Assembly: GCA_043825875.1 (NCBI GenBank) | Contig: JBDRRF010000031.1 | Span: 70,087-134,086 of the forward strand | DNA from: Pseudomonadota bacterium | Lineage (GTDB): Bacteria; Desulfobacterota; Desulfobacteria; Desulfobacterales; RPRI01 | DNA: 64,000 nucleotides | Direction: 5' to 3' | Shown: piece by piece, positions 39,097 to 62,375 of the stretch | Numbering within the stretch: position 1 is the first letter of the stretch | Layout: every line of letters starts with the position of its first letter | Position numbers and translations under genes: made by a program | Notes under the pieces: model-generated | What the model saw: the letters and a program-made list of their open reading frames with translations, nothing else | What the model was told of the DNA's origin: nothing | Databases searched by the model: none

Positions 39097-39117
39097 TATC
39101 TATTGGACAAATAGATA
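39097..39117. promoter_or_regulatory. Candidate operator upstream of the 13-gene operon
   Basis: Perfect 8-5-8 inverted repeat TATCTATT-GGACA-AATAGATA. Confidence 0.35.
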
Positions 39118-39258: not shown

Positions 39259-40095
39259 ATGTTTGCAGGTATAGATATAGGATCAATGACAGCAAAATGC
39301 GTCATTTTAAATGAATCGCAAATTACTTCCTGCGTTGTCATTCCTACTGATTCAAATCCAAAATTAGCCGGAATAACCGTATTTGAAAAGGCACTTGATG
39401 CGATTGAATGCACTATTAAAGAAATCAAGCGAATTGTGGGTACCGGATACGGTCGCGTATCCCTTGATTTTTTTGATCAAACAATAACGGAATTAAGCTG
39501 CCAGGCTAAAGGGGTTCGTTATTTGAATCCTGCCATCGAAGGTATTATTGATATAGGTGGCCAGGACAGTAAGGCTATTAAACTCAAACGTGATGGAACA
39601 ATTGATGACTTTAGCATGAATGACCGTTGTGCGGCCGGAACCGGGCGTTTTTTAGATGCTATGGCAAAAGCTCTTAAAACAGATACGGAATCTTTCAGCA
39701 ATTATTGTCAGGCCTCAAGGAAACCATGCTCAATTAACAGCACTTGTGTTGTATTTGCAGAATCGGAGGTGATTTCTCTTCTTGCTGCCGGAGAAACCAG
39801 AGAAGATATTGCGGCAGGACTTAATGAAAGCATAGCAAGACGTATTGGCACCCTGGTTAGACGTATAGGTCTTAACCGTAATGTCGCTTTTGTCGGTGGT
39901 GTTGCCAGAAATGACGGATTACGGTTGGCTTTGGAAAAGTATTTAAAAATTAAATTTACTGCAATTTCAGAAGATCCTCAGATTACGGGAGCTCTGGGCG
40001 CATCAATAATTGCAAAAGAAGGATATTTGGGCAGCAATAAAATAAATGATATGAATACAAAAAATATTTTGAGTGAAAGGAGAATATTTATTTAA
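39259..40095 (+). CDS. ATP-dependent [4Fe-4S] activase (HgdC/BcrAD/YjiL ASKHA family), probable reductase for the double-cubane protein
   Basis: GIDIGS, TGYGR, DIGGQDSK, MNDRCAAGTG, STCVVFAESEVIS. Confidence 0.92.
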   Translation: MFAGIDIGSMTAKCVILNESQITSCVVIPTDSNPKLAGITVFEKALDAIECTIKEIKRIVGTGYGRVSLDFFDQTITELSCQAKGVRYLNPAIEGIIDIGGQDSKAIKLKRDGTIDDFSMNDRCAAGTGRFLDAMAKALKTDTESFSNYCQASRKPCSINSTCVVFAESEVISLLAAGETREDIAAGLNESIARRIGTLVRRIGLNRNVAFVGGVARNDGLRLALEKYLKIKFTAISEDPQITGALGASIIAKEGYLGSNKINDMNTKNILSERRIFI

Positions 40096-42171
40096 ATGAA
40101 ATTTAAATTATTAAAACTTTTAGGACTGGGCTTTCTGGCTTTATGCCTGTTTATGCCTCAGAGTGTATGGGCACAAGAGGATGAAGATTGCCCGGACTGT
40201 CCTAAAAAAGAAGATTCTATAGATGATGAACGTGTTAAGCTGGGAGATGTTTTTGTCCACGCTTTTGGCGGGGGTGCAGTAACATATACTCCTACCAGTA
40301 CTTTAGTGGATGTGGATAAATATGTCAAAGCAGGAAAAGTAGAAAAAGTAGAAGATATACTTATGAACATTGCCGGAATTGATGTGTTGAAAAGTTCCGG
40401 AGCTCCTGATGCACAGGCTGTTGTTATGATGAGAGGGTTTGATGACAGCCGTTTTATTGTGGCAATGGACGGAAGACCACTAACAGGTTCAACCGGAAAG
40501 CAAAATACAACAATAGATTGGTCTGCTTTACCTTTGAGTGATATCGAAAAGATAGAGATTATCAGAGGTGGTGCATCAGCCGCTTATGAAAGTGCAGAAG
40601 GCGGTGTTATAAATATCATTACAAAAAAAGGAAGAAAAAGAGACTCTCCGGTTCCAAGACTGATTTATACGCAGGATTATTCGGCAAATCTTGATTACAC
40701 CAATGCAATTTCACATAGCGAAAGAGTCAACGTGGATGGAGGTGTGGGGGGTCTTACCTATTATTTAAATTACGGACACCGCGACGATGAAGCGTATTTG
40801 AATAATAATTATTTCTCTGGTGAAGACTATTCGGCCAGGTTTAATTATCTCTTCCCCTTTCAAGGAATTTTGTTCTTTAGTTATAAAGGCTCATCCACGG
40901 AAACGGGGAATAATGTAGTAAACTGGCCCGGTGTTGCAGGATATGATCCGGATTATCCTAAAGTTCCCGAAGATGCGGATACGATAAGATATAGGGCGAT
41001 ATCCTACGATTATCCTGGTAGAAATTACAAGGAAAGATCCGTAAAGCATATGGATGTGGCTTTTGAGCAGCCGATAAAGGATACAAAGTTAAAAATATAC
41101 TACTACAATACTCAAAATTATGAAAAACTTTACTATTTTACATCTACGGGTGTTCCCATGACATATGGCGGTGATGAGATAACCGAAAGGCATGTCGGAG
41201 GGGGTATCAAATGGTCTTTGTATCCTTTTAAAAATAATTCACTCACACTCGGGTATAATTTTAAAAGAACGGAAGCCAAGGAATTACATGATATTTTTAG
41301 AATCCATGCGGGATATTTTGAAGACTTGTGGAATATTTCCGATAAATGGATGATGAAAACCGGCCTGCGTGTTTCAAAGGCAAGACAGCAAACTTATCCT
41401 TTTAAGCTTTCCGATGAAGCGGCTTCTTCAAGGCATTTATACAATGACTGGTTCATCTTACCAAAATTTGCCTTAACATATAATTTCAATCCGGAAACCA
41501 ATGTATATGTATCCGTTGCCAAGGACTATGACACTCCAGGGTGCTGAGATGGCTCTGCTATGTCTGCCGGCGGCAAACAAAAAAAACTTGAATATGAAAC
41601 AACGTGGCAATATGAAACCGGAATTTATCATCGTTTTACAGAAAATATCGATAACAGATTTGTAGTTTATTATACTGATATCACAGATTACGTTACAATA
41701 AACAGAGCTGATGTAATTCATAACAGCACATGGAGTGGATGGAATATCGATACCGTAAGGTTCTGGGGAATTGAATATGAATTTAACATAAATTGTAAGA
41801 AAATGACTGCTTTTGGAAACTATACATATGTTGATAACGAAGTAAAAGAAGATGATCCCACAAAATTAGTAGACTTTTTAGTGGAATTACCACCTAAGCA
41901 TAAGATTAATCTTAGTTTAAGATATCATCTTAGCGATTCTGTACAATTTTCCTGGGATCAGCGTTACGTTGGCAAGAGATACAGTGAAGCAGGATATACT
42001 CTTAGCGAATATACAACATCGGATATCGGTGTGCAGTATTCATTTTATAAGAACAAAGCAAAGCTAAACGCTTATATCAATAATTTGTTCGGGGAAAATT
42101 ACGAGCAAACATACGGTTATCAGATGAAACGCCAAATTTATGGTTTAACATTTAAATATACATTCTTTTAA
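40096..42171 (+). CDS. TonB-dependent receptor with in-frame TGA at 41545-41547, putative selenoprotein (Cys-Sec), 691 aa
   Basis: Signal peptide, plug motifs MRGFD...DGRP, IEKIEIIRG...GGVINIITKK; ORFs 40096-41547 and 41560-42171 share one frame with one TGA between; ends ...FKYTFF. Confidence 0.8.
41561..41579 (+). other. Putative bacterial SECIS hairpin for TGA 41545
   Basis: TGTCTGCC-GGC-GGCAAACA (7 of 8 pairs), G-led apical loop about 21 nt after the TGA. Confidence 0.55.
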
Positions 42172-42177
42172 TTATTT

Positions 42178-44007
42178 ATGAAAAAACGAACCGTTAGTAT
42201 TTTGAAATTAAAATTTATCTATATTGTAAACATCAGTTGTGTATTGATTCTGCTGCCTTTTTTTAATGGTATCCTTAATGCAAAAGAAAAAATAATCAAA
42301 GAAGAAACCATTAAAATTGATACAAACAAGGATGGGAAGATTGATCAGTTAGTCTATCTGGATGCAGGTGGAAAAGTATTTAAGGTAGAAAATGACGGCA
42401 ATGCCGATGGAATAATGGACAGGTTCCAGTATTATGAAAATGGCAAACCAGTGCGTGTTGAAAGAGATCTTGATTTTAATCAAAAGATCGACTGCCGGGA
42501 TTTTATCAAAGATGGCAAAAGAGTCAGGCAGGAAAAGGACAGCACAGGCAATGGCAAAATCGATCAGATTATATACTTTGACAAGAAAGAAAATCCTTTA
42601 AAGATTGAAAAGGATTCTACAGGCGACGCTTATTTCGATACTATTATCTATTTTGATAAGGGAGTAATTGCAAGTTCAACAAAAGATACAAAAGCAGACG
42701 GAAAAATAAATGTATGGGAAACATATCAAAACGGAAAGCGTTTTGAAAGAAAAGAAGATATGGACGGTGATGGGCTGGTTGAAAAATTCATATTGTTTGA
42801 TGGCGAAGGTCTTGTAAAAGAAATCAGGATGGATTCGGACAAAAGCGGTAATATGGATACTTTCCGGTTTTTTGAAAAAGGAGATATCGTTTTACAGAAA
42901 AAGGATATGGATTATGACGGCTGGTTTGAAACCGTAATTATATTTAAAAACGGAAAAATATATGAAGAACAAAAAGATTCAAACAATGACAGGGTATTTG
43001 ATATAACACTCAAGTTTAAAAACGAAAAGCCTTTTTACCAGGAAAAAGACACTGATTTTGATAAAACAGCGGACTTCTTCTGTGATTTCGATTCAAAAGG
43101 ACTTCCGGCAGTAATCAGGGAAGACAGCAGGTATACAGGAAAAATAGATCGAACAAGATATTTTGAAAAGGGCGAGATAAGTAAAATGGAATATGATTCA
43201 CAAGGAGATGAATTCATAGATCAGGTAACCTTTTTTAAAAACAGTAAACCGAGTTTGCAGACACTTGATGAAAATAAAGACACAAAGCCTGATATAAAGA
43301 TTTTTTTCAACAAAAAGGGAGAAAAACAAAAGGTTGAAAGTGATACGAATTATAACGGCAAATCTGATACATGGCAGTACTACGAAAATGAAAAAATCGT
43401 AAGAGTGGAAAAAGATGAAAATGAAAACGGGGCAGTTGATCATAAACTGTATTTTGACAAAAACGAAAACAGAATAAAACTGCTTACGGATCAGGATCAC
43501 AATGGCAGATTTGAAACCACACAGTGGTTTAACCTTAAAGATTGGGATGTGGTTATAGAAACTGATATCGATGGAGATAAAAACACCGATACCCGTCATT
43601 TCTACAAGGATGGTATTTTAAGAGTAAAAGAAATTGATGAAAATGCCGACGGGAAACCGGATCTTGTTGAATATTACGACAAAGACAAAAAGCTTGTAAA
43701 GAGTAAGGAAGATGTCGGGTACACCGGTATTTTAAATACTGTCTGGCATTATGACGGAAAGCAGCAGGCAGTTCTCGCCGAAAAGGATGTTGACGGAGAC
43801 GGCAGGATTGATACCTGGTTTTACTATGACAAGGATCGTGTAACAAGAGTTGAGGAAGATTCAAACCATGACGGCAAACCGGACATCTGGGAAGAATATG
43901 ATGAATCCGAAGCACTGGTAAAAAAATCAAAAGATCTGGATTATGACGGAATTGTCGATGTGATAGAAGACAAGACAAATAATGATAATTTAAACATTAA
44001 TAAATAA
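42178..44007 (+). CDS. Exported acidic tandem-repeat protein (about 24-aa repeats with DxxxDGxxD)
   Basis: Signal-like N-terminus, then roughly 20 or more repeats such as DTNKDGKID, DMDGDGLVE, DVDGDGRID, DSNHDGKPD. Confidence 0.8.
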   Translation: MKKRTVSILKLKFIYIVNISCVLILLPFFNGILNAKEKIIKEETIKIDTNKDGKIDQLVYLDAGGKVFKVENDGNADGIMDRFQYYENGKPVRVERDLDFNQKIDCRDFIKDGKRVRQEKDSTGNGKIDQIIYFDKKENPLKIEKDSTGDAYFDTIIYFDKGVIASSTKDTKADGKINVWETYQNGKRFERKEDMDGDGLVEKFILFDGEGLVKEIRMDSDKSGNMDTFRFFEKGDIVLQKKDMDYDGWFETVIIFKNGKIYEEQKDSNNDRVFDITLKFKNEKPFYQEKDTDFDKTADFFCDFDSKGLPAVIREDSRYTGKIDRTRYFEKGEISKMEYDSQGDEFIDQVTFFKNSKPSLQTLDENKDTKPDIKIFFNKKGEKQKVESDTNYNGKSDTWQYYENEKIVRVEKDENENGAVDHKLYFDKNENRIKLLTDQDHNGRFETTQWFNLKDWDVVIETDIDGDKNTDTRHFYKDGILRVKEIDENADGKPDLVEYYDKDKKLVKSKEDVGYTGILNTVWHYDGKQQAVLAEKDVDGDGRIDTWFYYDKDRVTRVEEDSNHDGKPDIWEEYDESEALVKKSKDLDYDGIVDVIEDKTNNDNLNINK

Positions 44008-44023: not shown

Positions 44024-44641
44024 ATGCTCGAATTCTTTTCGAAGGGCGGTATCTGCATGTGGCCGATTCTTCTGTGTTCGGTTATATCATTGGCTATTTT
44101 TATAGAGCGTCTTATACGGATCGGCAAGATGCGTAAGCGCGGACAGGGGCTTGAGTATAAGGTGGCTGAGAAACTGAAAAACAGGGATGATCAAAATGCT
44201 TTTGCGATTGCAGGTCAGAGCAATTCACCTATTGGACGGGTGTTGGTAAAAGCACTGGAAGTAAAAGACCAGGACAGGGAAACCATTGAGACCGTTATTG
44301 TCCATGCGACCGATGAAGAGGTTCAGGGCCTTTCACGATATCTTCAGGCTCTTGCAACAATGGGAAATATAGTACCTATGATGGGACTTTTAGGTACGGT
44401 TATGGGTATGATTAAAGCATTTATGGTTATCCAGGAAATGGGAGGCAAGGTCAACTCTTCAGTTCTTGCCGGAGGTATCTGGGAGGCTATGCTGACAACA
44501 GCATTCGGCCTTGCTGTAGCTCTTCCTATTGTTGTTGCTCACAGCTATCTTCTTTCAATGGTAAATGGCTATGAGTCCAGAATTCAGCAGGGAAGTGTTT
44601 TGTTTTTGAAAACCATATCATCTCTTAGAAACAAATCTTAA
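44024..44641 (+). CDS. exbB: ExbB/TolQ proton-channel protein
   Basis: GG..MWPI, PMMGLLGTV.GMI, GGIWEAMLTTAFGL. Confidence 0.92.
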   Translation: MLEFFSKGGICMWPILLCSVISLAIFIERLIRIGKMRKRGQGLEYKVAEKLKNRDDQNAFAIAGQSNSPIGRVLVKALEVKDQDRETIETVIVHATDEEVQGLSRYLQALATMGNIVPMMGLLGTVMGMIKAFMVIQEMGGKVNSSVLAGGIWEAMLTTAFGLAVALPIVVAHSYLLSMVNGYESRIQQGSVLFLKTISSLRNKS

Positions 44642-44653
44642 AAGGATTGCTTT

Positions 44654-45061
44654 ATGATTAAAAGCCGTAAAAAGAGGGCAATTTATGAGGTGCAGATGCC
44701 GCTTACCTCGCTTATTGATATTATTTTCATGCTGCTTATATATTTTCTTTTGACCACAAATTTCATGGTGGATGAAGGAATAAAGATCAAGCTTCCCCAG
44801 GCAAAAGCATCAAAGCCCCAGGTGGAGGAATCCATCACTATTTTTGTTGATAAAGATGGCAGAACATATCTGAACGAACAGGAAGTCGAGATAGGCGAAC
44901 TTTTCAAGAAGGTTAAGGAAATGGTTGGAAACGATAAGGATAAACTGGTAGTAGTCAGATCCGACAGGGGAGTAATACTTAACAAGGTGGTCAAGGTCAT
45001 GGATGTTGCCAAGGCTGCCGGAGCCGGCAGGCTTTGCCTTGCTACGGAAAAGGATTTGTAA
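44654..45061 (+). CDS. exbD: ExbD/TolR protein
   Basis: LTSLIDIIFMLLIYF, LP.A, RSD...VVKVMD. Confidence 0.92.
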   Translation: MIKSRKKRAIYEVQMPLTSLIDIIFMLLIYFLLTTNFMVDEGIKIKLPQAKASKPQVEESITIFVDKDGRTYLNEQEVEIGELFKKVKEMVGNDKDKLVVVRSDRGVILNKVVKVMDVAKAAGAGRLCLATEKDL

Positions 45062-45066
45062 TTGTC

Positions 45067-45792
45067 ATGGAAACTACATGGGGAACAAATATTATTGGTG
45101 ACCGTTACGATAGAAAAAAAAATGCAAACTGGCTTCTAAGAGGACTGATCGGAATTTCTTTGGGGGTCCATTTGATAGCGGTTTTGCATGTTTCAGGGCT
45201 ATATAAGTCAAGCATGATATCATTTATAGAGTTAAGTATGGAAGATATTTCAAAGTCTGTTTCAAGAGATATTCCAAGACCCCGTCACAAACCGAAACCT
45301 GTTTCCGTCCCGAAAGAGATTCAAAAGCTCAAAATACAAACAAGGGTTATGCCAAGCTTCAAACCTATCAAAATAGACAACATAAATAATAACTATTCAA
45401 GCAAAATGACCGAACAGATAAGTGCTTCCGGGATTTTAAAAGGCTCTGCTTTGGATCTTGCCGCTCTTGATCCGGGAGTATCAGACGGATTAAAGGATGT
45501 AATAACGAAAAAAGATTATTTTGATCTTGTTCAGCTCAGGATAGAAAGCAAAAAAGAATATCCGAGAATAGCAAAGATGAATCGGATAGAGGGTCGGTCA
45601 ACCGTGGAATTTGTTGTCGGACTTGACGGTAGTATATCCGGACTATCGATTGTAGGAACATCAAGAGACAGAACTTTAGACAATGCCGTTATTGAAGCCG
45701 TAAAAAAAGCATCACCTTTTCCAAGGCCTCCTTTAAGACTTTTTAGCGGGCCTATTCCGATTGAAATTACTGTCGTTTTTGAAATAACATAA
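45067..45792 (+). CDS. tonB: TonB energy transducer
   Basis: TM with S...H (SLGVH), Pro-rich linker, YP..A....IEG...VEF and SPFP.PP C-domain. Confidence 0.88.
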   Translation: METTWGTNIIGDRYDRKKNANWLLRGLIGISLGVHLIAVLHVSGLYKSSMISFIELSMEDISKSVSRDIPRPRHKPKPVSVPKEIQKLKIQTRVMPSFKPIKIDNINNNYSSKMTEQISASGILKGSALDLAALDPGVSDGLKDVITKKDYFDLVQLRIESKKEYPRIAKMNRIEGRSTVEFVVGLDGSISGLSIVGTSRDRTLDNAVIEAVKKASPFPRPPLRLFSGPIPIEITVVFEIT

Positions 45793-45803: not shown

Positions 45804-46961
45804 ATGAAAGAATTCAAGGTTAATGATACTATTCAGGAAGTAAGAACAAATCTGGCTTTAGAACTTGAAATGGCGAAAGATGAGGGAAGAAAAGTTGTAG
45901 GTTCAATGTGTTCTTATTTTCCAAAGGAACTTGTATGGGCAGCCGATGCGATTTCAGTCGGTCTTTGCGGAACTACTGAAGAGCCGATTGCAGCAGCAGA
46001 AGAAGTGCTGCCTGCTGACTTATGCCCCATGGTTAAAGCAACTTACGGCCGTGCTGTTTCAAACACCTGCCCAATATTTCCGCTTACCGATTGTATTGTG
46101 GGTGAAACAACATGCGATGGCAGAAAAAAAATGTATGAACTACTTGCATGGGAAAAGCCTATGCACATTATGGAACTCCCGCAGATGTCTGAAGAAAAGG
46201 AAGCTCTTGTCCACTGGATAGCGGAGGTTAAAAAGCTTAAAGTATTTATTGAAAAACAACTTGGGGTAAAAATAACAGACGAAAAATTAAAACAGGCCAT
46301 CAAAGATGTAAATGAAGAACGCAGGCTTTTAGTTGAAATTCATAAATGCCGTAAGTCACATCCAGTGCCGGTTATGGGTGTTGACCTTGTTGGATTAACC
46401 ACCAAATTCGCCTATACGGTTGATCGCAAACCTTATAGAGAAAAACTTGGCAATCTTCTCGAAGGGCTAAAAACAAAAATACAAAATAATGAATATGCCT
46501 GTTCTTCTGACAGACCAAGAATCCTCTGGACGGGTTTGGGAAACAGCCTGGGATGTGACAAGGTTTTAAAACTGGTGGAGGAATGCGGAGGGGTTGTCGT
46601 CTGTCAGGAAGGTTGTGGCGGTATTACGCGCATGGAAGATATGGTGGATGAAAACAAAGATCCTATTGAAGCGATTGCCCAAAGATATCTAAGAGTAACT
46701 TGTTCCTGTATGACGCCGAATAATACAAGGTTTAAAGATATCGACAGGCTTATAACGGAATATAATATACAGGGTGTTATAGATCTTACATGGCAGTTTT
46801 GCCATACTTTTAATATCGAATCTTACAGGGTAAAAGAAGTTGTTAAAGGAAAGCATGACCTTCCTTTTCTCCATATCGTAACGGATTTTTCGCAGTCCGA
46901 TATCGGACAGCTCAGAGTACGCATTGAAGGTTTTCTGGAGCAGATTTCAATGGGAAATTAG
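45804..46961 (+). CDS. Double-cubane-cluster-type anaerobic reductase (YjiM / 2-hydroxyacyl-CoA dehydratase superfamily)
   Basis: [58 protein letters not shown]; no second dehydratase subunit in the operon. Confidence 0.8.
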
Positions 46962-46962
46962 C

Positions 46963-47745
46963 ATGTGTCTCATTGAGGCGGAAAAACTTACAAAAGTATA
47001 TGCGGATGGAAAAAGCAAAAATGTAATTGCAATCGAAGACTTTAATCTCAAAGTTGAGGAACGTGAATTTACCAGCATAGTCGGTCCTAGCGGATGCGGA
47101 AAATCAACTTTTCTATTATTGGTTTCGGGCTTAGAAAAAGCAACGGCAGGCAAGCTATATATTAAAGGCCAACCGGTAAACGGTCCCGATCCTTTAAGGT
47201 CTATAGTATTTCAGGAATATCTTCTTTTCCCATGGAAAACTGTCAGAGGTAATGTTGAGTTCGGTCTGGAACTTAAAAGAATACCGAAAAACAAACGCCG
47301 GGAAATTGCTTCCGTCTATATTGAACTCGTAGGTCTGGAGGGTTTTGAAGACCGCTATCCTCACGAGTTGAGCGGAGGCATGAAACAGCGGGTAGCAATT
47401 GCAAGGGCGCTTGTAAATAAGCCCAAGGTAATTTTGCTTGACGAACCATTCGGATCATTGGATGCACTCACCCGTGAAGGCCTTCAGACAGAGCTTTTGC
47501 GAATATGGCATGAGGCAAAATGCACAGTACTTTTTGTAACCCATAGCATAAGCGAGGCGGTTTATTTGTCTGACAAAGTTGCAATTATGACCAAGCGGCC
47601 AGGAAAGATTAAAGAATTGATTAAAATTGATCTTCCCCGGCCACGCACCAGGGATATGTTTGTTTCGCCTGAGTTTAGAGAATATGAAAGATATCTTAAA
47701 GAACTTGTATGGGAAGAATTTCAAGAAGGCAACAATGAGGTTTAA
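46963..47745 (+). CDS. ABC ATPase, TauB/SsuB type
   Basis: [32 protein letters not shown]. Confidence 0.93.
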
Positions 47746-48505
47746 ATACAGAAAAATTATCTCTCCCATATGTGTTCTTGCATTATGGGAAATCATCGGC
47801 CGTTTTATCTGGGTGGATCCTTTCTTTTTTCCGCCTCCGTCCGAAATGCTTAAGGAATTGTATGCAATGATAATTACCGGTGAGGTATTTCCGCACATTG
47901 CTATTAGTATTGCCCGTGCATTTAGCGGATATATTCTCGCAGCAATTGCAGGTCTGACTATAGGACTTCTTGTAGCATGGTCAACGGTTGTCGAAGATAT
48001 CATCGATCCGCTTATCGAACTGATCAGGCCTATTTCCACATTTGCGTTGGTACCTGTTATGTTTATCTGGTTCGGTATAGGAAACGGCTCTAAAGTGGCG
48101 ATTATTTTTAAAGCATGTTTTTTCCCTATAGTCTTAAATACAATTGCAGGAATCAAAGGTGTAGATAAAAAACTCATTCAGGCTGCGCGTTCACTTGGCG
48201 CAAATGGTTTTCAGCTATGGGTTAAAGTACTTATACCGGCAGCCCTCCCCATGATTGTCACCGGTATGAGAATTTCAACCGCCATGTCAATGCTTGCAAT
48301 TGTGGGAGTTGAAATGCTTGCTGCCGATTCCGGAATAGGCTTTCTAGTTATAGATGCACAACGAACATTTGCCACAGCGAGAATGTTTGCAGGAATTATC
48401 GTAATTTCATCTCTAGGATTTAGTATGGATCGTATTGCCCGGATTATTCAAAGCAGAGTACTGGCTTGGCATACCGAAACCTCTTTATCCGGGGGAATGG
48501 CGTAA
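47735..48505 (+). CDS. ABC permease, TauC/SsuC type
   Basis: PPPS, WFGIG, AARSLGA, PAALP, GIGF. Confidence 0.92.
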
Positions 48506-48531: not shown

Positions 48532-49512
48532 ATGTATTTTAAAAAAATTACAATTATGATCATATCCGTTACGGTAATTGTATTACTAAATTTATATCCC
48601 TGCACAGCCAAAGACTTTCCTCTGGGCAGCATGAAGGTAACATACGGCAGAAGTATAGACGATCTTCCTCTCTATGTAGGGCTTGAAGAAGGCTTTTGGG
48701 AAAAAGAAGGACTCAAAGTCGAGCTTGTAAGACTTGTAGGTGAACAAAACATTATCGCTTCAGCGCTTCATGGCGACATAAATGCAGGTCATATTGCACC
48801 TGCATCATTTTTTCATGCTGCAAACAGAAAAATTCCCATAAAGATCGTTGCATGGCTCGGCAGGGCGCATAATGGAACAAGATGCGGTCTTCATTCGGAT
48901 GCAACAAATAAGGAAATAAAAGACATTACGGATTTAAAAGGCAAGAGAGTTGCAACCAGTGGGGATATAAGTGCCAAGATGATTCTTCGCGAAACTTTGA
49001 TAAAGGCCGGCTTAAGCTTTGATGATATTCATGAAATAAAGGGGATCAAGCTTGATGATGCCATGAAGCATGAAGCTGCCTTAAGATCAAAAGGCGTTGA
49101 TGTAATAGTTGCCTGAGATCCCACTGCGACCATGCTGGAGATGCATGGTGCGAGTCGGCTGCTTTTTTCATTTAATGACGCAATCCCGGGATATGTATTT
49201 TCAGGATTGTTTTTTACGGATAAGTATCTTCGTGAAAACCCGGAAAAAGCAAAAGCCTTTTTACGGGGCCTTGTCAGGTCATTTGATTATATAAAAAACA
49301 ATGAAAAAGAAGCAAGACGCTGGATACCGAAATATTGCGGAGTCGAAATGGAAGTGGCTATGCGCTCTGCCCTGAGGCATTTTGAAGACGGAAGGGAACC
49401 TATTAAACAGTTATATAAACAGCAGGATATTATGATAGAAAACGGCCATCTTCCGGGAAGAATTCCCATAGAAGATTTTATCGATTACAGTTATCTGCCA
49501 GATAATAATTGA
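48532..49512 (+). CDS. ABC substrate-binding protein (SsuA/NMT1 type) with in-frame TGA at 49114-49116, putative selenoprotein, 326 aa
   Basis: ORFs 48532-49116 and 49132-49512 share one frame; read-through gives VDVIVA-U-DPTAT; PLYVGLEEG, DLKGKRVA, ENPE..KAFLRGL motifs span both halves. Confidence 0.8.
49120..49158 (+). other. Putative bacterial SECIS hairpin for TGA 49114
   Basis: Perfect stem ACCATGC (49129-49135) / GCATGGT (49143-49149), loop TGGAGAT, extendable lower stem; loop about 19 nt after the TGA. Confidence 0.7.
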
Positions 49513-49558: not shown

Positions 49559-51745
49559 ATGAAAAAAAGAATCTTCATCAATGAAGAATCAGCTAAGGGA
49601 TATACAAGGCGACAATTTCTTAAATACCTTGAGCTTGCAGGAATCGGTGTAACAATAGGCGGTGCAGGCTTTCTTGCAGGATGCAGTGATAAAGTTGATT
49701 CTCTTGCCGGGACAAAGGAAGTCATCACAAGATGCGGTCTTTGCGGATCGGATTGCGGCATGAAGGCATATATCAAAAATGATCGTGTGATTGCAGTTTC
49801 TCCTAACAAGGATGACCCTCATAGCAAAGGATTTATGTGCGATATGGGGCTTGCAAATGTTGAACAAACATATTCTCCGGATAGAATTCTTAATCCAGGA
49901 AAGCGGGTCGGTGATAAATGGGTGGATATTTCGTGGGATGAAGCATTAAATATTATTTCGGAAAAACTTTCAAAACTTAAAAATGATTATGGCCCTCAAT
50001 CAACAGTCTGCCACTATGGAGTTACCGAGGTTAGAGCACCTTTTTACAGGCAGTTATTCAGGCGGTTTTCAAATGTTTACGGAACTCCAAATTTTACCGG
50101 CTGCGGCAGCCAGTGCGCTGTTTCAACAATGATGGCAAAAAAATACAGCATAGGTTCTGTTCACCCTGATTATGAAAATACTAAATGCATGGTTCAATGG
50201 GGAAGCAATCCGTCATCTTCAAGCCTTCTTGAATGGTTTAGTGAAGTACTGCCTGCCAGGGAAAGAGGTGCAAAACTTATCTGCATTGATCCAAGAGCAA
50301 ATCCCATGACTCAAATGGCAGATATTCATCTTAAGCCGCGTCCCGGAACAGACGGGGTGCTTGCACTGGCAATGACAAATATAATTTTAGAAAATAATCT
50401 TTATAACAGGGATACTGTAGAAAAATATGGCACAGGTTTTTTCGAATATGAAGAACTTGTAAAACAATACAAGCCTAAGCGAGCGGAAGCCATAACCGGA
50501 ATTTTGGCAAAAGATATTATAAATGCAACAATGATGTATGCCGAAAATTCACCTGCTTGTATTGAAACAGGCAATGCATTGGAACTCCATATAAACGGAG
50601 TGCAGACAATCAGGTCTGTTATGTTGATACAAGCCTTATGTGGAAATGTGAATGTAAAGGGAGGTATGATTTCTTCGGGAGAAAAAGTCGGGCTTGCGGA
50701 TTTGGAATTAGATAATTATAAGCCATTTACATCCCAAGGATATTCTGCCGACAGCTATCCTGTTTTATGGCAGTCAAGAAAAATGGTAACGGCAAATCTT
50801 TTGCCGGATACCGTGTTAACAAAAAAGCCATATCCGATTAAAGCGCTTATGGTTATAGGTGGCAATCCGATTATTACGGGTCCTAATTCTTCACACCAGA
50901 GAAAAGCATATAAAGAAATGGATATGGTGGTTGTCTATGATCTTTTTATGACAGAAACTGCCAAAATGGCAGATATATTCTTACCTGCTACATCATGTCT
51001 TGAAAGAGATAATTTCAAGGCAAGGGACAGGATATATCTGACACCAAAGGTTATAGCCGAACAGGGAAATGCTTGGCCGGAATGGAAGCTATGGTTTGGG
51101 CTGGCAAATAAGATGGGTTATGAAAATGAATTTCCATGGGCGACCCTGGATGAAGCTATAGACGAACACCTCTCTCCCATCAATGTTACCGCTTCGGATC
51201 TTAGGATGAATTTTAATGGTATTGATCATCCTTTAAAGTCGGGAAGCATGAAAAAGCTGGAGAATAAAATAAAGACTCCTTCCGGAAAAATTGAATTCCA
51301 TTCACAAACACTGGCAGACGCAGGATACAATCCTCTGCCTGACTATGTTGAGCCATACGAAGGACCTGCTGACAAAAAACTTCTTGCAAAATATCCGCTT
51401 CTTATGACCTCCGGCATACGGATACCATACTATATTCATTCCCAGTTTAGAAATCTTGCTTCGCTTAAAGCAAAATCACCAGGTCCTGTGATTGAGATGA
51501 ATCCGGCCGATGCTTCATCTCTTGGAATATCCGAAGGAAATAATGTATCAATAAGCTCTCTTAGAGGCAGCATCCAGGCAAAGGCACAACTTAATAAAAG
51601 CCTGAAATCCGGAATAGTAGCCATGTCTCATGGATGGTCAAAAAGTAATGTAAACGAATTGACAGACGATTCGGCTCAATCTCTGGACCCGATAAGCTCT
51701 TTTCCGGGGTATAGAGGATTTTTGTGTAAAGTTGAAAAAGTATAG
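49559..51745 (+). CDS. Tat-exported Mo/W-bisPGD oxidoreductase catalytic subunit
   Basis: TRRQFLK Tat motif plus LAGC lipobox, CGLCGSDC..C FS0 cluster, GTPN...SQC likely metal-ligand Cys, TPSGKIEF, HSQFRN. Confidence 0.9.
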   Translation: MKKRIFINEESAKGYTRRQFLKYLELAGIGVTIGGAGFLAGCSDKVDSLAGTKEVITRCGLCGSDCGMKAYIKNDRVIAVSPNKDDPHSKGFMCDMGLANVEQTYSPDRILNPGKRVGDKWVDISWDEALNIISEKLSKLKNDYGPQSTVCHYGVTEVRAPFYRQLFRRFSNVYGTPNFTGCGSQCAVSTMMAKKYSIGSVHPDYENTKCMVQWGSNPSSSSLLEWFSEVLPARERGAKLICIDPRANPMTQMADIHLKPRPGTDGVLALAMTNIILENNLYNRDTVEKYGTGFFEYEELVKQYKPKRAEAITGILAKDIINATMMYAENSPACIETGNALELHINGVQTIRSVMLIQALCGNVNVKGGMISSGEKVGLADLELDNYKPFTSQGYSADSYPVLWQSRKMVTANLLPDTVLTKKPYPIKALMVIGGNPIITGPNSSHQRKAYKEMDMVVVYDLFMTETAKMADIFLPATSCLERDNFKARDRIYLTPKVIAEQGNAWPEWKLWFGLANKMGYENEFPWATLDEAIDEHLSPINVTASDLRMNFNGIDHPLKSGSMKKLENKIKTPSGKIEFHSQTLADAGYNPLPDYVEPYEGPADKKLLAKYPLLMTSGIRIPYYIHSQFRNLASLKAKSPGPVIEMNPADASSLGISEGNNVSISSLRGSIQAKAQLNKSLKSGIVAMSHGWSKSNVNELTDDSAQSLDPISSFPGYRGFLCKVEKV

Positions 51746-52517
51746 ATTGAAACATCACAAGGCAGATGAATTTAAAATAACACGAAGGGTCTTTTTGAAA
51801 AATACCGGTATGTTGGCTACCACAGCATCTTTTCCGATATTAAGAAGTAAAGAAGATGTCTTAAGGCCGCCTGGTGCCGCATCTGATTTTCTTTCAAAAT
51901 GTATCAGATGCGGCAAATGTGTTGAAGCATGTCCTTATGATAGTATTCGTTTTTTAGGGGCCAATTCCGGTCTTAATATTTATACACCATATATAGATCC
52001 TGTAAAAACCCCCTGTTATTTATGCCGGACAACAGGGACAGACGGAAAATCAAAGCCTCTCGACAAATACTTGCGCTGTGGAAAAGCATGCCCGACAGGT
52101 GCTTTAAAACCCATACCAAACGATATAGAAGTACTATCCAAGCTTCCAAAAGAAATGAAAATCGGGACAGCAAACCTTAACAGGAAGCTTTGTGTGGCCT
52201 GGCAGTTTAGTTTTTGTGGGGAATGTTATTTTAACTGCCCACTTAAAGACAAGGCACTTCTATCAAGGCCGCCTGATGAAGAAGTATCAAGAAGCGGCAT
52301 ATCGCCTTATGTTAATCAAAAAGCCTGTATCGGATGTGGCCGGTGTGTTTTTGTCTGTCCGGTAAGAAAATTCGATGCAAAATTTATAAACGAAACTAAT
52401 GTGCCGGATTATTTTCAGCTAAGATACGGCGCTCTTGTGGAAAGAATTATTGCACAAAATAGAGATAATGCACAATTGCCGGCAATTAGAGTATTAAAAA
52501 ACAAGTCAGACAGATGA
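51732..52517 (+). CDS. NapG/MauM-like periplasmic polyferredoxin
   Basis: TRRVFLK, LRPPGA, CIRCGKCVEACP, CIGCGRCVFVCP. Confidence 0.85.
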   Translation: MKKYRLKHHKADEFKITRRVFLKNTGMLATTASFPILRSKEDVLRPPGAASDFLSKCIRCGKCVEACPYDSIRFLGANSGLNIYTPYIDPVKTPCYLCRTTGTDGKSKPLDKYLRCGKACPTGALKPIPNDIEVLSKLPKEMKIGTANLNRKLCVAWQFSFCGECYFNCPLKDKALLSRPPDEEVSRSGISPYVNQKACIGCGRCVFVCPVRKFDAKFINETNVPDYFQLRYGALVERIIAQNRDNAQLPAIRVLKNKSDR

Positions 52518-53383
52518 AGAGAAGTGAGAAGAAAAATCTTAAAATACTTCCATTAAGACGTATATCTCAGATAAGTATAATTCTCCTTATCATTGCCGTG
52601 CCCTTATACTCACAAAATCCGTATAACGGGTCACCCTCATTAATTGTAAAGGGTCAATTGCCGCCCCCTGCCATTTCGAAAGTATCCGGTGATACATGGA
52701 GTTTTTCAATAGGAAATTTTAATATTATTCATCCCGCAGCTTTTTTTGATTTTGTGTTTTCAGCAAAATCCGTTTCTTCTTCCATGCTCATCGCTGTTTT
52801 AATTCCTTTATTGATAACATTACTTTTTGGCAGGGTATTTTGTTCCTGGCTTTGCCCAATCGGTTTTATACTGGAACTTTCAACAAAAATTAATGCGATT
52901 TTGAAAAAAAAAGGATTTACCCGTAAAATATATATAAGAAATTTTCGTTATATAATTCTTGCAGTATCCCTTCTTACAGCATTATTATTAGGAATTCCCA
53001 TAATTTCAATCTTTGATCCTGCCCATCTTCTCGGCAGGGAACTTTCCATGATATTTACCCATCAGGAAGTAAGTGTTGCCGGTCTTATATTTCTATTAGC
53101 TATACTTGTATTTGAAATATTATTTGTATCCCGCGCCTGGTGCAGGTTTTTTTGCCCGTCCGGGGCATGTCTGTCTCTAATTGGAGTTAATCGAAATTTT
53201 AAAATCAGAACAGATCAAAAAGAATGTGTAAATTGTAACCTATGCAGATCGGTGTGTTCTTATAATCTTGAGCCGGACAAGATAGTAAACTACACAACTT
53301 TACAGAGAGCGGTTTGTGATAATTGCGGTTTATGCAGGGATTCATGTCCGAAAGGAGCAATATCTTATGACTTTTGTATATAA
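52514..53383 (+). CDS. NapH/MauN-like membrane polyferredoxin (quinol-interacting)
   Basis: GRVFCSWLCP, RAWCRFFCP, two C-terminal CxxCxxCxxxC motifs, TM helices. Confidence 0.87.
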   Translation: MKRSEKKNLKILPLRRISQISIILLIIAVPLYSQNPYNGSPSLIVKGQLPPPAISKVSGDTWSFSIGNFNIIHPAAFFDFVFSAKSVSSSMLIAVLIPLLITLLFGRVFCSWLCPIGFILELSTKINAILKKKGFTRKIYIRNFRYIILAVSLLTALLLGIPIISIFDPAHLLGRELSMIFTHQEVSVAGLIFLLAILVFEILFVSRAWCRFFCPSGACLSLIGVNRNFKIRTDQKECVNCNLCRSVCSYNLEPDKIVNYTTLQRAVCDNCGLCRDSCPKGAISYDFCI

Positions 53384-57435: not shown

Positions 57436-59418
57436 ATGGTTAAGGGGTCAGTAAGAGTTGTTGTTTTTATGGTAATTGGAATATGTTTTTGTTTTCCATA
57501 TAAAGCATTTTCAGAATCAGTTGGTGATCAAACGGCGGCATATTCTTTAGGTGAAGTTATTGTTTCGGGTAAAACTGTTGGGGTGGAATCAATTGGTACC
57601 GTTCGGGAAATTACTGCTAAAGATATAGAGATGCAGAATGCGCGTACATTAGATCAGGCTTTAAGGTTGTTGCCTGGTGTGAGTATACGTACCGGAAATG
57701 ACGGAATACCGCGTGTTGATTTAAGAGGATTTCGGTCAAGGCATGTGTTGCTGCTGTTGAATGGAATAGCTTTCAATTCAGCATTTGACGGTCAGTTTGA
57801 TCCGGCTATAATTCCGGTGGAAAACATAGCTAAAATCAAGGTTTCCTATGGTAACAGTTCGGTGCTATACGGACAGGGCGCGTTGGGCGGTGTTATAAAC
57901 ATCATTACAAGAAAAGGCACCGAAGGCGTTCAGGGTAATGTAAAGCTGGAAACGGGAGAACGTGAGAATCATATAGGAAGTTTCAGAATATCGGGCGCAA
58001 AAGATAAATTCAATGGTTTTATCAGCGGCAGTGCCCAGGACAGCGAAGGTTTTATGTTATCGGATGATTTTGATGAAACTAAATATGAAAATGGTGGCCT
58101 AAGAGAAAACAGTGATAGAAAGCAGAACAGCCTTTTTGCCAACCTTGGATATTCTCCTACTGATAGTTTGGAAATAGGGCTGGTTGCCAACACGACTAAA
58201 GGTGAATTTGGAAAACCGCCTGGTACTATTGCATCTGACGATTTTACCTCCAACCCAAAGTATGTCAGAATCGAAGACTACGAGGGTTTTTCCGGGCAAC
58301 TTTCCATGAGTTATAACTCACAAGGGCCTTTTGGTGTTCGCGGATGGATGTTTTTTAACCGTATGGATGAGGATGAAAACCGGTATGATGATGATCTATA
58401 TGATACCATAACCAGCAAGAATACTTATTTTATAAGCAATCTTACTAAAACATACGGCGGTACTATTCAAACTTTTGCCGATTTAAAAAATATCGGTCTC
58501 GTTACATTGGCTGTAAGTACAGAAAAACAATCTTTTGATTCAAATGGAATCGTTCGGGATAACAAAAACAATATCCAAGAATTAGACGAAGACTATAACG
58601 TAAATATCCATTCAACTGCTCTTGAATATGAAGTGTCTCCGTTTGATAAGCTCGGCTTGGTGTTTGGCTACAGCCATCACTGGTTTAATAAAGACTCCGG
58701 CGGTACGGATGACAAAAACAGTTATCTGGCTGGCATCCATTATGATGTGTTTGAAAATACCCGTATCAAAGGGTCATATGCGCGAAAAATCAGGTTTCCT
58801 TCCATTCGTCAGCTTTATGAGGAAGATACCGGTAATCCGGATTTAGAGCCTGAGCGATCAAATAATTATGAGTTGGGAATAGAACAGAATATTTTTGAAC
58901 GCACCTCGGTTTCGCTAACAGGGTTTTATATAGATGTTAAAAATTATATTGAAAAAGTTGATGCAACGGATATTTTTGAAAACAATGAACAATATTGTTT
59001 TCAGGGAATCGAATTTGTTGCTGAAACCCGCTATATTAATAATCTGATGCTAAGAGCCGGTTATACGTATATGGATACTGAAGACAAATCCGACAATACC
59101 GGCAAAGACGAATTGCAATACAGGCCTGAACATAAGCTGACGTTTGAAAGTCAATATACTTTTCCCTGCGGGCTTTCAGCCTATGCATCTGCCATGCATT
59201 ACGCCAATCAGTATTTTTACAGCAAAAGCGCACCGTATCGGCAGCGGAAGCTAAATGATATTACACTGGTTAATTTAAAACTTGACCAGTCTTTCTTAAA
59301 AAACCGCCTTAAAGCTTATATTGGTGTGGAAAACGTTACAAATTTAGATTATGAGGAAGCTTATAGCCTCCCGCAAAAAGGCCGGACTTTTTATGGAGGA
59401 ATAGAATATAGCTTCTAA
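57436..59418 (+). CDS. TonB-dependent receptor (metal-chelate/cobalamin-like class)
   Basis: Signal peptide, LRGF, SSVLYG.GALGGVINIIT, GNPDLEPE, C-terminal EYSF. Confidence 0.92.
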   Translation: MVKGSVRVVVFMVIGICFCFPYKAFSESVGDQTAAYSLGEVIVSGKTVGVESIGTVREITAKDIEMQNARTLDQALRLLPGVSIRTGNDGIPRVDLRGFRSRHVLLLLNGIAFNSAFDGQFDPAIIPVENIAKIKVSYGNSSVLYGQGALGGVINIITRKGTEGVQGNVKLETGERENHIGSFRISGAKDKFNGFISGSAQDSEGFMLSDDFDETKYENGGLRENSDRKQNSLFANLGYSPTDSLEIGLVANTTKGEFGKPPGTIASDDFTSNPKYVRIEDYEGFSGQLSMSYNSQGPFGVRGWMFFNRMDEDENRYDDDLYDTITSKNTYFISNLTKTYGGTIQTFADLKNIGLVTLAVSTEKQSFDSNGIVRDNKNNIQELDEDYNVNIHSTALEYEVSPFDKLGLVFGYSHHWFNKDSGGTDDKNSYLAGIHYDVFENTRIKGSYARKIRFPSIRQLYEEDTGNPDLEPERSNNYELGIEQNIFERTSVSLTGFYIDVKNYIEKVDATDIFENNEQYCFQGIEFVAETRYINNLMLRAGYTYMDTEDKSDNTGKDELQYRPEHKLTFESQYTFPCGLSAYASAMHYANQYFYSKSAPYRQRKLNDITLVNLKLDQSFLKNRLKAYIGVENVTNLDYEEAYSLPQKGRTFYGGIEYSF

Positions 59419-60421
59419 AAAAAATATAGCATCGGCGATACTGTTTATTGCGTTGCCGATTATATGCATTTGTTTATCACTATGCATCGGAAGGTATCCT
59501 TTACCTTTATCTGATGTGTTGAAAATATTGTTGAGCAGATTTGAGCCTTTTCATATTTCGGTAACGGATATTCAATATGGTGTGGTTTGGGATATCCGTT
59601 TGCCACGTGCTATTTTAGGGGCATTGGTAGGCGGCGCTCTTGCGGTAAGCGGCGCCGCATTTCAGGGGCTATTTAAGAACCCTTTGGTCAGTTCAGGAAT
59701 TTTAGGTGTCAGTGCTGGCTCTGGTTTCGGGGCAGCACTGGCAATTCTTTTGTTCAACTCGGTAGTAGCAACCTATCCGTTTGCCCTTGCTTTTGGCATT
59801 CTGGCTGTTATGCTCAGTTATATGATCGGCAGGGTGTATCAATCGACACCCAGTATCATGTTGGTTCTGGGGGGTGTTATTGTGGCATCAGTGTTTTCCG
59901 CTTTGATTTCATTTGTCAAATTTGTAGCAGACCCATATGAACAACTTCCTGCAATTGTCTTCTGGCTTATGGGCTCTCTTGCCAATGTCGGTTATTATGA
60001 AATTGCCGTAGCAATCATTCCCATTTTTATAGGACTTGCAGGGCTTTTTGGCATAAGCTGGCGTATTAATGTGCTTTCGATGGGAGATAAGGAAGCTCAC
60101 TCACTGGGTATAAACGTACGGCTATCAAAGGCAATCGTCATTATTTGTGCGAGCCTTGCTACGGCAGGGGCAGTTTCAGTCAGTGGCATTATAGGATGGA
60201 TTGGATTGGTAATTCCTCATATAGGCCGTATGTTGGTTGGAAACGATAACCGTATACTGATTCCGGTCAGCTTCTCTTTAGGTGCGTCTTTTCTGATTTT
60301 AGTCGATAATTTGGGAAGAATATTGACGGGATCTGAAATTCCGCTTGGTATTTTAACCGCTATTATCGGCGGCCCGTTTTTTGTATATCTTTTAAAAAAG
60401 ACAAAAGGAGGTGGCTGGTAA
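59408..60421 (+). CDS. FecCD/BtuC-family ABC permease (probable ATA start at 59408; first canonical start TTG 59453)
   Basis: IRLPR, NPLV...LGV..G, FWLMGS, GWIGLVIPH, GGPFF. Confidence 0.9.
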   Translation: MASKKNIASAILFIALPIICICLSLCIGRYPLPLSDVLKILLSRFEPFHISVTDIQYGVVWDIRLPRAILGALVGGALAVSGAAFQGLFKNPLVSSGILGVSAGSGFGAALAILLFNSVVATYPFALAFGILAVMLSYMIGRVYQSTPSIMLVLGGVIVASVFSALISFVKFVADPYEQLPAIVFWLMGSLANVGYYEIAVAIIPIFIGLAGLFGISWRINVLSMGDKEAHSLGINVRLSKAIVIICASLATAGAVSVSGIIGWIGLVIPHIGRMLVGNDNRILIPVSFSLGASFLILVDNLGRILTGSEIPLGILTAIIGGPFFVYLLKKTKGGGW

Positions 60422-61236
60422 TGACAATGCCCCTTTTGTCGGTTGAACAGGCAGGCTTTTCGTATGGCCACCAGCAGATATTAAGTGATATCAGCTTTAG
60501 TGTTGATAAAGGAGAAGTTTTTTGTTTGCTAGGTCCTAATGGTTGTGGAAAAACAACTCTTCTGGATTGTATTCTTGGATTTCAACGCCTGAAATCGGGC
60601 AGTATTATAGTTTCCGGCAAGTCCATCTCGGAGATAACTTCGGGCAATCTCGCCAGATTAATTTCCTATGTTCCTCAAAGCCATGAGAGGACATTTCCTT
60701 ATACAGTAATGGAAATTGTTATGATGGGTCGGGCTGCTTACACCGGTTTGTTTTCCGCACCGAACAGAACGGACAGACGGATTGCCGAATCGGCATTAGA
60801 TACTGTTGGTATTTCACATTTAAAAATAAGGCCATATACACGTCTTAGCGGCGGGGAAGGCCAATTGGTCATGATTGCAAGAGCGCTGGCCCAAAATGCG
60901 CCTCTTGTAATCATGGATGAGCCAACGGCCCATCTTGATTTTAAGAATGAACTGATAGTACTTGAAACCATAGCCCGGCTTGTGCAGGACAAAGGGATAT
61001 CGGTAATAATGGCAACGCATTTTCCCAATCATTCTTTTTTCTTCGAAAACAGTGATATATCTATTAATGTCGCTATGCTAAAAGATACTCGGTTCATTGA
61101 AACTGGCCCACCTGAAAAGGTATTGCATGAAGATAAGATTGAAACATTATATGGCATACAAGCCGATATTATCAAATATACTAATGGTACTGACAGAGCA
61201 AGAAAACAGGTGATACCTATTCGCACGATCGTATAA
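60421..61236 (+). CDS. FecE/BtuD-type ABC ATPase
   Basis: GPNGCGKT, LSGGE, MDEPTAHLD. Confidence 0.93.
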   Translation: MTMPLLSVEQAGFSYGHQQILSDISFSVDKGEVFCLLGPNGCGKTTLLDCILGFQRLKSGSIIVSGKSISEITSGNLARLISYVPQSHERTFPYTVMEIVMMGRAAYTGLFSAPNRTDRRIAESALDTVGISHLKIRPYTRLSGGEGQLVMIARALAQNAPLVIMDEPTAHLDFKNELIVLETIARLVQDKGISVIMATHFPNHSFFFENSDISINVAMLKDTRFIETGPPEKVLHEDKIETLYGIQADIIKYTNGTDRARKQVIPIRTIV

Positions 61237-61280
61237 GGGCCTAATATCGGAGCACCGCTCAAAAGAATGGAATGGAATAA

Positions 61281-62375
61281 ATGAAAAAACACTTTCTCGG
61301 ATGGCTTATTCTTGTTGGATTACTCCTGGCAATGTTCACAACGCCGGTACTATTGCATTGTCAAGAAGACAAAGATGGTTTTAATGGCAAAGTTGTAAAG
61401 CTTATAGATTGTAAGGGACGTTTGGTGGTGTTGCCTGCAAAGGTGAAAAGAATTGCTTGTTTGTATGCGTTTACAGGGCATGTGGTTACGATGCTGGGAA
61501 GAGGAGAGGATATCATTGCCGTTTCTTATGGCCTTAAACGCGATACGCTTTTGCTTAGCATATGCCCATCGATTTTGGACGCACGGGTTCCTAAGGCGCA
61601 AGGCTCTATCAATATTGAAGAATTACTGGTATCTGAGCCAGATATTCTTTTTGTGCCTGGAGATGTTGCCGGTGACCTCTCGGATATGGCAAAGCTTGCC
61701 AGATTTCAAATACCATATCTGATTATCGATTATTCCAGCATCGAAACACAGCAATATGCCATTAAGTTAATCGGACAGGCTATCTGGGCCGAGGCACGTG
61801 CTGATGAGTATATTGACTATTACCAGGATACAATTTACCGCGTACGCCAACTCACTGATAAGATCCCGATGAAAAACCGTATTCATGTCTATTATGCAGT
61901 TAACGAGCCGCTTCGAACCACGCTGACTCAAAGCATTGAAATAGATTGGCTCAAAGTAACAGGGTGTGAAAATGTGGTCCTCAACAGGGAGCAGCAGATA
62001 ATTGAAGGTGCAAACTACACAAGCCTGGAGCAGATATTGCTATGGAATCCGGATGTCATTCTTGCAAATGAACCGAGTGCTGTTCAGCTCATTCTTAATG
62101 ATGATAAGTGGTCAGCGCTAAAAGCCGTGAAAAACAGAAAAGTATACCAAATGCCTATCGGTATTTCACGCTGGGGGCATCCGGGGTCATTAGAAACGCC
62201 GCTTGCTATCCTTTGGACGGCAAAAACACTTTATCCGGAACTGTTTTCCCATATTGATATGAAAGCCGAAACCAAGGCATTTTATAAAAAATTTTTTAAC
62301 TATGAGCTTTCGGAAGAGATGACGGAAAAGATTTTAAGTGGTAAAAATGTGAGAAAACCGAAAAGAAGAAAATAG
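61281..62375 (+). CDS. Metal-chelate ABC substrate-binding protein (BtuF/FhuD class)
   Basis: D..GR.V.LP..V.RI, NIEELL..EPD, SLEQILLWNPD, AVKNRKVY. Confidence 0.88.
   Translation: MKKHFLGWLILVGLLLAMFTTPVLLHCQEDKDGFNGKVVKLIDCKGRLVVLPAKVKRIACLYAFTGHVVTMLGRGEDIIAVSYGLKRDTLLLSICPSILDARVPKAQGSINIEELLVSEPDILFVPGDVAGDLSDMAKLARFQIPYLIIDYSSIETQQYAIKLIGQAIWAEARADEYIDYYQDTIYRVRQLTDKIPMKNRIHVYYAVNEPLRTTLTQSIEIDWLKVTGCENVVLNREQQIIEGANYTSLEQILLWNPDVILANEPSAVQLILNDDKWSALKAVKNRKVYQMPIGISRWGHPGSLETPLAILWTAKTLYPELFSHIDMKAETKAFYKKFFNYELSEEMTEKILSGKNVRKPKRRK

Follow-up and report, generated by a model that had tools for sequence, protein, structure and literature searches.

The ABC substrate-binding protein encoded in a transport operon in the window, the whole stretch of 64,000 nucleotides analyzed here, very likely carries selenocysteine (Sec) at position 195, specified by a recoded UGA codon. 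Conserved sequence features and gene linkages suggest that the protein most likely serves a route for the import of a selenium compound, a reading with about an even chance of being right. The module to which it belongs is a candidate for a specific selenium importer, of which bacteria so far have no known example. The gene shows the following features:

48532..49512, + strand: ABC substrate-binding protein of the SsuA/TauA/NrtA fold, 326 amino acids by read-through (open reading frame, profile and structure comparison)
48883..48885, + strand: Cys118, invariant in 31 of 31 aligned members, aligned with TauA Glu106 at the hinge
49114..49116, + strand: in-frame TGA, predicted Sec195 (VA-U-DP), aligned with TauA Trp176 and with the Cys of the SaoX motif TCDP
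49129..49149, + strand: SECIS-type hairpin with a 7-bp stem and a 7-nt loop (folding, conservation across 28 genes)

The sequence GTT GCC TGA GAT CCC occupies positions 49108 to 49122, with the TGA as codon 195 of the gene. A preliminary description of this DNA had placed the TGA in a VA-U-DP context and had expected read-through to give a 326-residue protein of the SsuA/NMT1 type. The sequence is as described there, and the product of the read-through frame matches Pfam NMT1 with an E value of 7e-26. A signal peptide is recognizable by eye at the N terminus. Public protein records split the gene into two open reading frames, and 81 matching C-terminal fragments stand as separate records, an annotation that favors a reading without Sec.

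Codon 195 is constant in the relatives at the DNA level. TGA is kept in all 40 homologous gene sequences, 28 of which are non-redundant once 12 near-identical or short ones are dropped, and TGG is found in none; these counts cover the family without its deeper "SGGVDAFIV" subclade, whose DNA was looked for and not found. All seven GTDB loci, with 65 to 85% identity, retain the TGA. Of 400 genomes sampled evenly across the phylum, four contain matches, with TGA at codon 195 in all five places. One of these five is a truncated second copy of the gene (L016, G338 C1:1448663-1448947), which keeps the TGA and breaks off within the hairpin. A degenerate DNA pattern run on metagenomes, covering the downstream motif only and leaving codon 195 and the synonymous sites free, gives 29 matches: 28 homologues, all with TGA, and one unrelated sequence. 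Among the 120 protein homologues listed of 151 matches, 116, including the window's own product, end exactly at residue 194, four run to full length and carry Cys, and Trp is found in none. Of 174 candidates of similar length, a search with residues 170 to 326 finds just one, which is a Cys form. Neither the metagenome pattern scan nor the 400-genome sample yields DNA of the Cys forms. The comparison of U or Cys with Trp in the closest homologues, for which the preliminary description had called, is thereby answered with TGA in every DNA copy, Cys in a few listed proteins, and Trp never.

The same description had cautioned that this column is often Trp, so that the TGA might be a mutated TGG. 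Among 30 outgroup binding proteins, the column contains Trp in 24, Thr in 2, and Cys in 4, two of the last being true SaoX proteins with the motif TCDP. The caution therefore holds for distant family members, where it speaks for a nonsense mutation, and fails for the nearest orthologues: TGA is fixed across genes that are 40 to 95% identical, and the Trp form is absent from the clade. The coding sequence past the TGA, which had been suggested for a test of relaxed selection, shows purifying selection as strong as that on the part before it. The dN/dS values before and after the TGA are 0.040 and 0.040 against L004 and 0.10 and 0.079 against L040, the two pairs used since five further pairs are saturated, and the mean identity of the protein before and after the TGA is 0.54 and 0.56. 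The D-P-x-A-T codons between the TGA and the ATG at 49132 encode unchanged amino acids in the 10 relative loci that were identified by means other than the DNA pattern, which argues against a split gene with a second start at this ATG. UGA is also the ordinary stop codon of the binding-protein gene itself, which argues against its being read as Trp or Cys.

The hairpin behind the TGA is built from the stem ACCATGC (49129 to 49135), the loop TGGAGAT (49136 to 49142), and the arm GCATGGT (49143 to 49149). It starts 12 nt 3' of the TGA, with the loop 19 nt from the TGA and a G at loop position 2. This geometry, recognized already in the preliminary description as a perfect 7-bp stem of SECIS type, agrees with the bacterial SECIS model as outlined in PMC13188914 (loop of 3 to 9 nt, stem of 4 to 16 bp, G within the first two loop positions, spacing of 16 to 37 nt, minimum free energy of ≤−7.5). 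Taken in isolation, the hairpin energy is weakly beyond chance, with a z-score of −1.5 for 60 nt, where 18 of 200 shuffles reach the same stability, and of −2.1 for 41 nt, where 10 of 200 do, a point in favor of a reading without Sec. It is the conservation of the stem, and not its energy, that places the hairpin far beyond chance. The full 7-bp stem is intact in 26 of the 28 non-redundant genes, which include kin and are thus not independent, compared to 1.6 expected when each gene's own codon usage is resampled (maximum of 7 in 2,000 runs); for the metagenome sequences in this count, the amino acids of the motif are set by the search pattern, while the synonymous sites are free. The stem codons are nearly fixed, with Thr as ACC in 27 of the 28 genes, Leu as CTG in 26, His as CAT in 28, and Gly as GGT in 26. 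Their synonymous diversity is 0 to 0.14, compared to at least 0.60 at all 30 other Gly/Leu columns, and the wobble site of Glu203 in the loop is free (0.48). Residue 204 is represented by seven different amino acids, yet the pairing G ends its codon in all 28 genes. No compensatory changes in the stem are seen among the 28 genes; the stem shows invariance. The hairpin is thus kept by synonymous constraint, the property that the preliminary description had named as a check. Its further argument, that the shared TGAGAT context of the two TGA codons of the operon favors Sec, falls away because this context simply arises from the Asp codon after the TGA, and in 9 of the 28 relatives that codon is GAC.

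The genome encodes tRNA-Sec as well as selA, selB, and a TGA-containing selD above the cut-offs. It is close to certain that SelB with tRNA-Sec would recode the UGA via the hairpin. All 10 other carrier genomes tested contain selA, which adds little, since selA may be common in this phylum.

The AlphaFold model of the binding protein, built from a 31-row alignment, has a pLDDT of 94. It compares with the SsuA/NrtA/TauA proteins at Z-scores of 27 to 30; for PDB 2X26, 6SSY, and 2G29, the Z-scores are 26.7 to 28.6 and the root mean square deviation is 2.6 to 2.9 over 278 to 290 aligned residues with 17 to 18% identity, so that the class II binding-protein fold is present together with the membership in Pfam NMT1. 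The invariant columns include His113, Cys118, Met178, position 195, and the motif D-P-x-A-T-M-L-E-x-H-G. In the profile alignment to TauA, with numbering worked out from Gly61, Gly79, and Glu106, U195 falls on Trp176 and Cys118 on Glu106. According to the relevant part of the TauA study (PMC6906117), Glu106 and Trp176 each touch the morpholino ring of the MES ligand, and the binding of taurine requires Glu106. Since both residues align with positions touching the same ligand ring, Sec195 and Cys118 are predicted to face each other across one cargo cleft. The preliminary description had placed the TGA residue before the [DE]P motif of the family, near the ligand cleft.

The protein shows no over-cut-off match to an NCBIfam model. 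It reaches 112.3 bits with the SsuA family model TIGR01728 (cut-off of 163.5) and 59.3 bits with the SaoX model NF040735 (curated cut-off of 300). No sao model is matched above its cut-off by the operon or flanking proteins, which thus lack the nine-gene sao locus with its SaoP, SaoB, SaoL, SaoT, and SaoE, and the genome contains no over-cut-off SaoX. In the tree, drawn midpoint-rooted from a quick method, 42 rows form a well-supported clade on a long stem, apart from SaoX and with the outgroups outside it. The four Cys forms are one group nested among the TGA forms, which suggests that Sec is ancestral; such nested full-length Cys forms also argue against a reading without Sec. Two unrelated binding proteins of the phylum (L066 and L070) have Cys, in the motif CEQ, at the column of Sec195.

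Among the closest known systems is SaoX, the extra substrate-binding lipoprotein of the SAO system, which shares the SsuA-like fold, a Cys or Sec in the same column (TCDP compared to VAUDP), and nearby double-cubane genes. The profile comparison matches the two proteins with 98% probability and an E value of 1.6e-13 and confirms the register of column 195, and U195 aligns with the Cys of TCDP, the equivalent of Cys/Sec192, in two over-cut-off SaoX proteins. This alignment is obtained by profile methods only, and pairwise BLASTP of the two proteins gives nothing (E value of 1.3). The part of the SAO study describing SaoX gives a single assembly among 52 with Sec at position 192 (Haft and Gwadz, bioRxiv 10.1101/2022.07.06.499078), so that the Sec site has a precedent in the same column. 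The differences are nevertheless clear. The identity is about 20%, the clade is separate and long branched, and Sec is the rule here, as 116 of the 120 listed proteins end before residue 195, in contrast to the single SaoX assembly. SaoX Cys50 and the pair Cys224-Cys225 are absent from the aligned columns, where the binding protein has Cys118 instead, and it stands beside a TonB receptor, whereas SaoX stands among nine sao genes. SaoB (NF040727) and SaoP (NF040733) resemble the module in placing Sec in an ABC import path and in their double-cubane association. No SaoB match occurs in the module at an E value of ≤0.001, and the permease, below the SaoP cut-off, has by eye a Gly where a SaoP-like permease has Cys. 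The SsuA, TauA, and NrtA class II proteins share the fold and the ABC partners and differ in the replacement of TauA Glu106 and Trp176 by Cys and Sec.

Table 1 of a 2026 inventory of 119 selenoprotein families (PMC13188914) lists SaoX, SaoB, and BtuF as the only binding proteins. The family described here is absent from that table and from the passages of deep-Sep (PMC12013277) and BSepDB (PMC13326102) concerned. A literature search gave no paper describing it, although supplementary material or other inventories may mention it. Sec in ABC binding proteins, even in this column, is thus known from SAO, and the receptor family is known as well; new is an unmodelled, almost purely Sec-containing binding-protein family in a different system.

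The operon in which the gene lies is composed of the following genes, preceded by a palindromic element:

39097..39117, no strand: perfect 8-5-8 inverted repeat, candidate operator, 141 nt 5' of the operon's first gene, with left arm and spacer shared with a selD-yedF operon
39259..40095, + strand: ATP-dependent activase (TIGR00241, profile match), the operon's first gene
40096..42171, + strand: TonB-dependent receptor, CU motif-type (NF049946, 1106 bits, cut-off of 700), predicted Sec codon at 41545-41547
42178..44007, + strand: 609-aa acidic repeat protein, recurrent beside the receptor (profile search, locus comparison)
44024..45792, + strand: exbB, exbD, and tonB (profile matches)
45804..46961, + strand: double-cubane-cluster reductase (NF040772, 484 bits, cut-off of 350; profile match)
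46963..47745, + strand: ABC ATPase, NrtC/D, SsuB type (profile match)
47735..48505, + strand: ABC permease, TauC/SsuC type (profile match; SaoP model 175 bits, cut-off of 295)
49559..53383, + strand: accessory genes for a Tat-type molybdopterin oxidoreductase and NapG-like and NapH-like proteins, in few relatives

The gene order thus runs from the activase through the receptor, the repeat protein, exbB, exbD, tonB, the reductase, the ATPase, and the permease to the binding protein and, behind it, the molybdoenzyme with the NapG/H-like genes. The second in-frame TGA that the preliminary description had seen in the operon is real and forms the Cys-Sec pair of the TonB receptor. With its score, the receptor is a full member of the CU motif-type family, so that this half of the module is already catalogued. 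Conservation of the module is judged from 17 non-redundant relative loci of at least 9 kb, 21 shorter or duplicate loci being left out. The double-cubane gene is present in 16 of the 17, and the contig of the remaining one ends first. The TonB receptor is found in 13, one of which has Cys-Cys: at L009:5413 the Sec codon is replaced by TGC, and the adjacent binding protein keeps its TGA. The 609-aa protein contains acidic D-x-D-x-D-G repeats and travels with the CU receptor; its family matches are weak.

Selenium genes (yedE, yedF, selD, selA/B, lysR_Se, and the DUF3343 gene) lie in the flanks of 7 of the 17 long loci, with the nearest one 2.9 to 5.3 kb from the TGA. yedE occurs in L008, L023, and L045, yedF in L009, L037, and L047, and selA, selB, selD, and yedF in L041, with lysR_Se or DUF3343 in some. 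No selenium gene is present in the fetched flanks of the other 10 loci or within the 64,000-nt window. By a rough estimate from the four known places in this genome, a random 20-kb stretch would contain a selenium gene about 2% of the time. These flanking genes are the YedE/YedF/LysR_Se/DUF3343 set of Lin et al. (PMC5322559), Table 1 of which links the set also to dehydratase-subunit and activase genes. YedE differs from the module in being a single membrane protein, and the term "ABC" is absent from the main text of PMC5322559; no over-cut-off YedE is present in this genome. The double-cubane reductases point in the same direction, with 955 of 970 NF040772 proteins in SelD genomes according to the portion of bioRxiv 2022.07.06.499078 concerned and a provisional link of double-cubane proteins to selenium in the pertinent passage of PMC10418091.

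The only other double-cubane gene of this genome heads an operon with an activase, a TGA-containing selD, and a yedF-like gene (G000 C76:115525-119450, minus strand). The 12-mer comprising the left arm and spacer of the inverted repeat occurs exactly twice in the genome, upstream of the window's operon and of this double-cubane, activase, selD, and yedF operon. Copies of the box are found in three genomes, which are kin:

39097-39117 of the window and G000 C76:119551-119571
L092/L103, L093/L104, L100, and L101

The inverted repeat is identical over 20 to 21 nt in L004 and L007, upstream of their activase genes. In G401 and G403, two of the three box matches in each genome fall at the module's operon and the selD-yedF operon, and the reversed control gives 0 and 0. 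The box is not found at the module or selenium genes of G206, G242, and G338, where seven matches elsewhere equal the reversed-control number and G242 has no more than a weak variant. A second box pattern gives no relevant match in five further genomes, and a loose matrix matches many sites without discriminating. The spacer, a part of the shared 12-mer, is similar to a −35 hexamer and may overlap a −35 element, which explains the likeness of the boxes in part; a sigma-70 scan upstream of the operon is at chance (5 compared to 4.2). T-N11-A is a trait of LysR binding sites. The LysR_Sec_metab regulator (NF040786) is present in this genome and in all five relatives tested, and the relevant passage of PMC5322559 proposes LysR_Se as regulator of selenium genes. 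The shared palindromic box is a candidate LysR_Se operator.

The conserved anatomy and the linkages are observed. Inference begins with the cargo, the chemistry, and the direction in which regulation acts. In the main reading, the Cys-Sec pair of the TonB receptor would capture a scarce Se species, be it selenide or polyselenide, a selenosulfide, or an organic diselenide, and the binding protein would take it over by dichalcogenide exchange on Sec195 and Cys118. A selenol favors Se-Se over Se-S bonds and would thereby pick selenium from a large excess of sulfide. The permease and ATPase would then import the Se species, the ATP-driven double-cubane reductase would release selenide, and YedF and SelD would convert it to selenophosphate, with a LysR_Se-type regulator binding to the shared box and co-regulating uptake with selD. 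In a bolder and somewhat less likely version, the module would be a dedicated high-affinity import system for selenium, in which the Cys-Sec receptor and the Sec/Cys binding protein would relay Se covalently by diselenide exchange, sorting it from excess sulfide, and the ATP-driven [8Fe-9S] double-cubane reductase would free selenide for SelD, the whole route being co-regulated with selD. Against selenium import, it is awkward for a selenium scavenger to depend on Sec itself during starvation, and the co-regulation with selD could equally mean that Sec-dependent genes are expressed when selenium is present.

A real selenoprotein with another cargo is rather unlikely to be the answer in the form proposed for SAO, i.e., a soft heavy metal or organometal(loid) bound by Sec195, Cys118, His113, and Met178 and reduced by the double-cubane enzyme. 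Metal complexes are common cargo of TonB receptors, both His113 and Met178 are invariant, and L023 contains an SO_0444/SaoE-like gene below the cut-off. The Sec position is also homologous to C/U192 of SaoX, and the corresponding part of the SAO study likewise shows CU motifs and double-cubane neighbors (bioRxiv 2022.07.06.499078). Yet no MerB-like lyase, thioredoxin-like SaoT, or efflux gene recurs beside the module, and the recurring neighbors together with the shared box point toward selenium genes instead.

It is improbable, too, that the selenoprotein imports an organosulfur compound, disulfide, or polysulfide for reductive cleavage by the double-cubane enzyme, its ties to selenium being the mere need for Sec. 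The fold and the ABC partners are those of the sulfonate/taurine/nitrate class, and a nitrogenase-like enzyme of Rhodobacter reportedly assimilates the sulfonate isethionate. However, Cys and Sec stand in place of the ligand-binding Glu106 and Trp176 of TauA, the SsuA cut-off is missed (112 compared to 163.5 bits), and no sulfur-assimilation genes recur in the flanks. The relatives are by name sulfate-reducer lineages, which are presumably seldom short of sulfur.

A gene without Sec, be it a TGG-to-TGA nonsense pseudogene, a split gene with its second part starting from ATG 49132, or a UGA read as Trp or Cys, is very improbable and is rejected on the fixed TGA, the constrained tail, and the nested Cys forms.

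According to PMC13188914, prokaryotes have no known transporter that is specific for selenium and of high affinity. For double-cubane reductases, bioRxiv 2022.07.06.499078 reports that their physiological substrates are generally not known, though these enzymes track SelD. For both questions, the module names genes, residues (Sec195, Cys118, and the receptor Cys-Sec), and a candidate operator for testing. If selenium import is the true function, the module would supply the missing transporter and a physiological substrate for double-cubane enzymes. At a minimum, the module contributes a selenoprotein family that has no curated model and is currently divided into two open reading frames in public records.

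Further genes accompany the module in some loci. The molybdopterin oxidoreductase and NapG/NapH-like genes directly 3' of the binding protein are intact in L040, left as remnants in L004, and represented by NapG/H alone in L005; the oxidoreductase of the window (49559 to 53383) might reduce an Se or S oxyanion. An unannotated protein of ∼197 residues, without a Pfam or NCBIfam match, is encoded directly 3' of the binding protein in three loci (L023:10124-10705, L027:3919-4509, and L084:8847-9434), beside which no receptor is found. At positions 57436 to 62375, the window contains a second TonB receptor together with a Btu/Fec-type ABC transporter.
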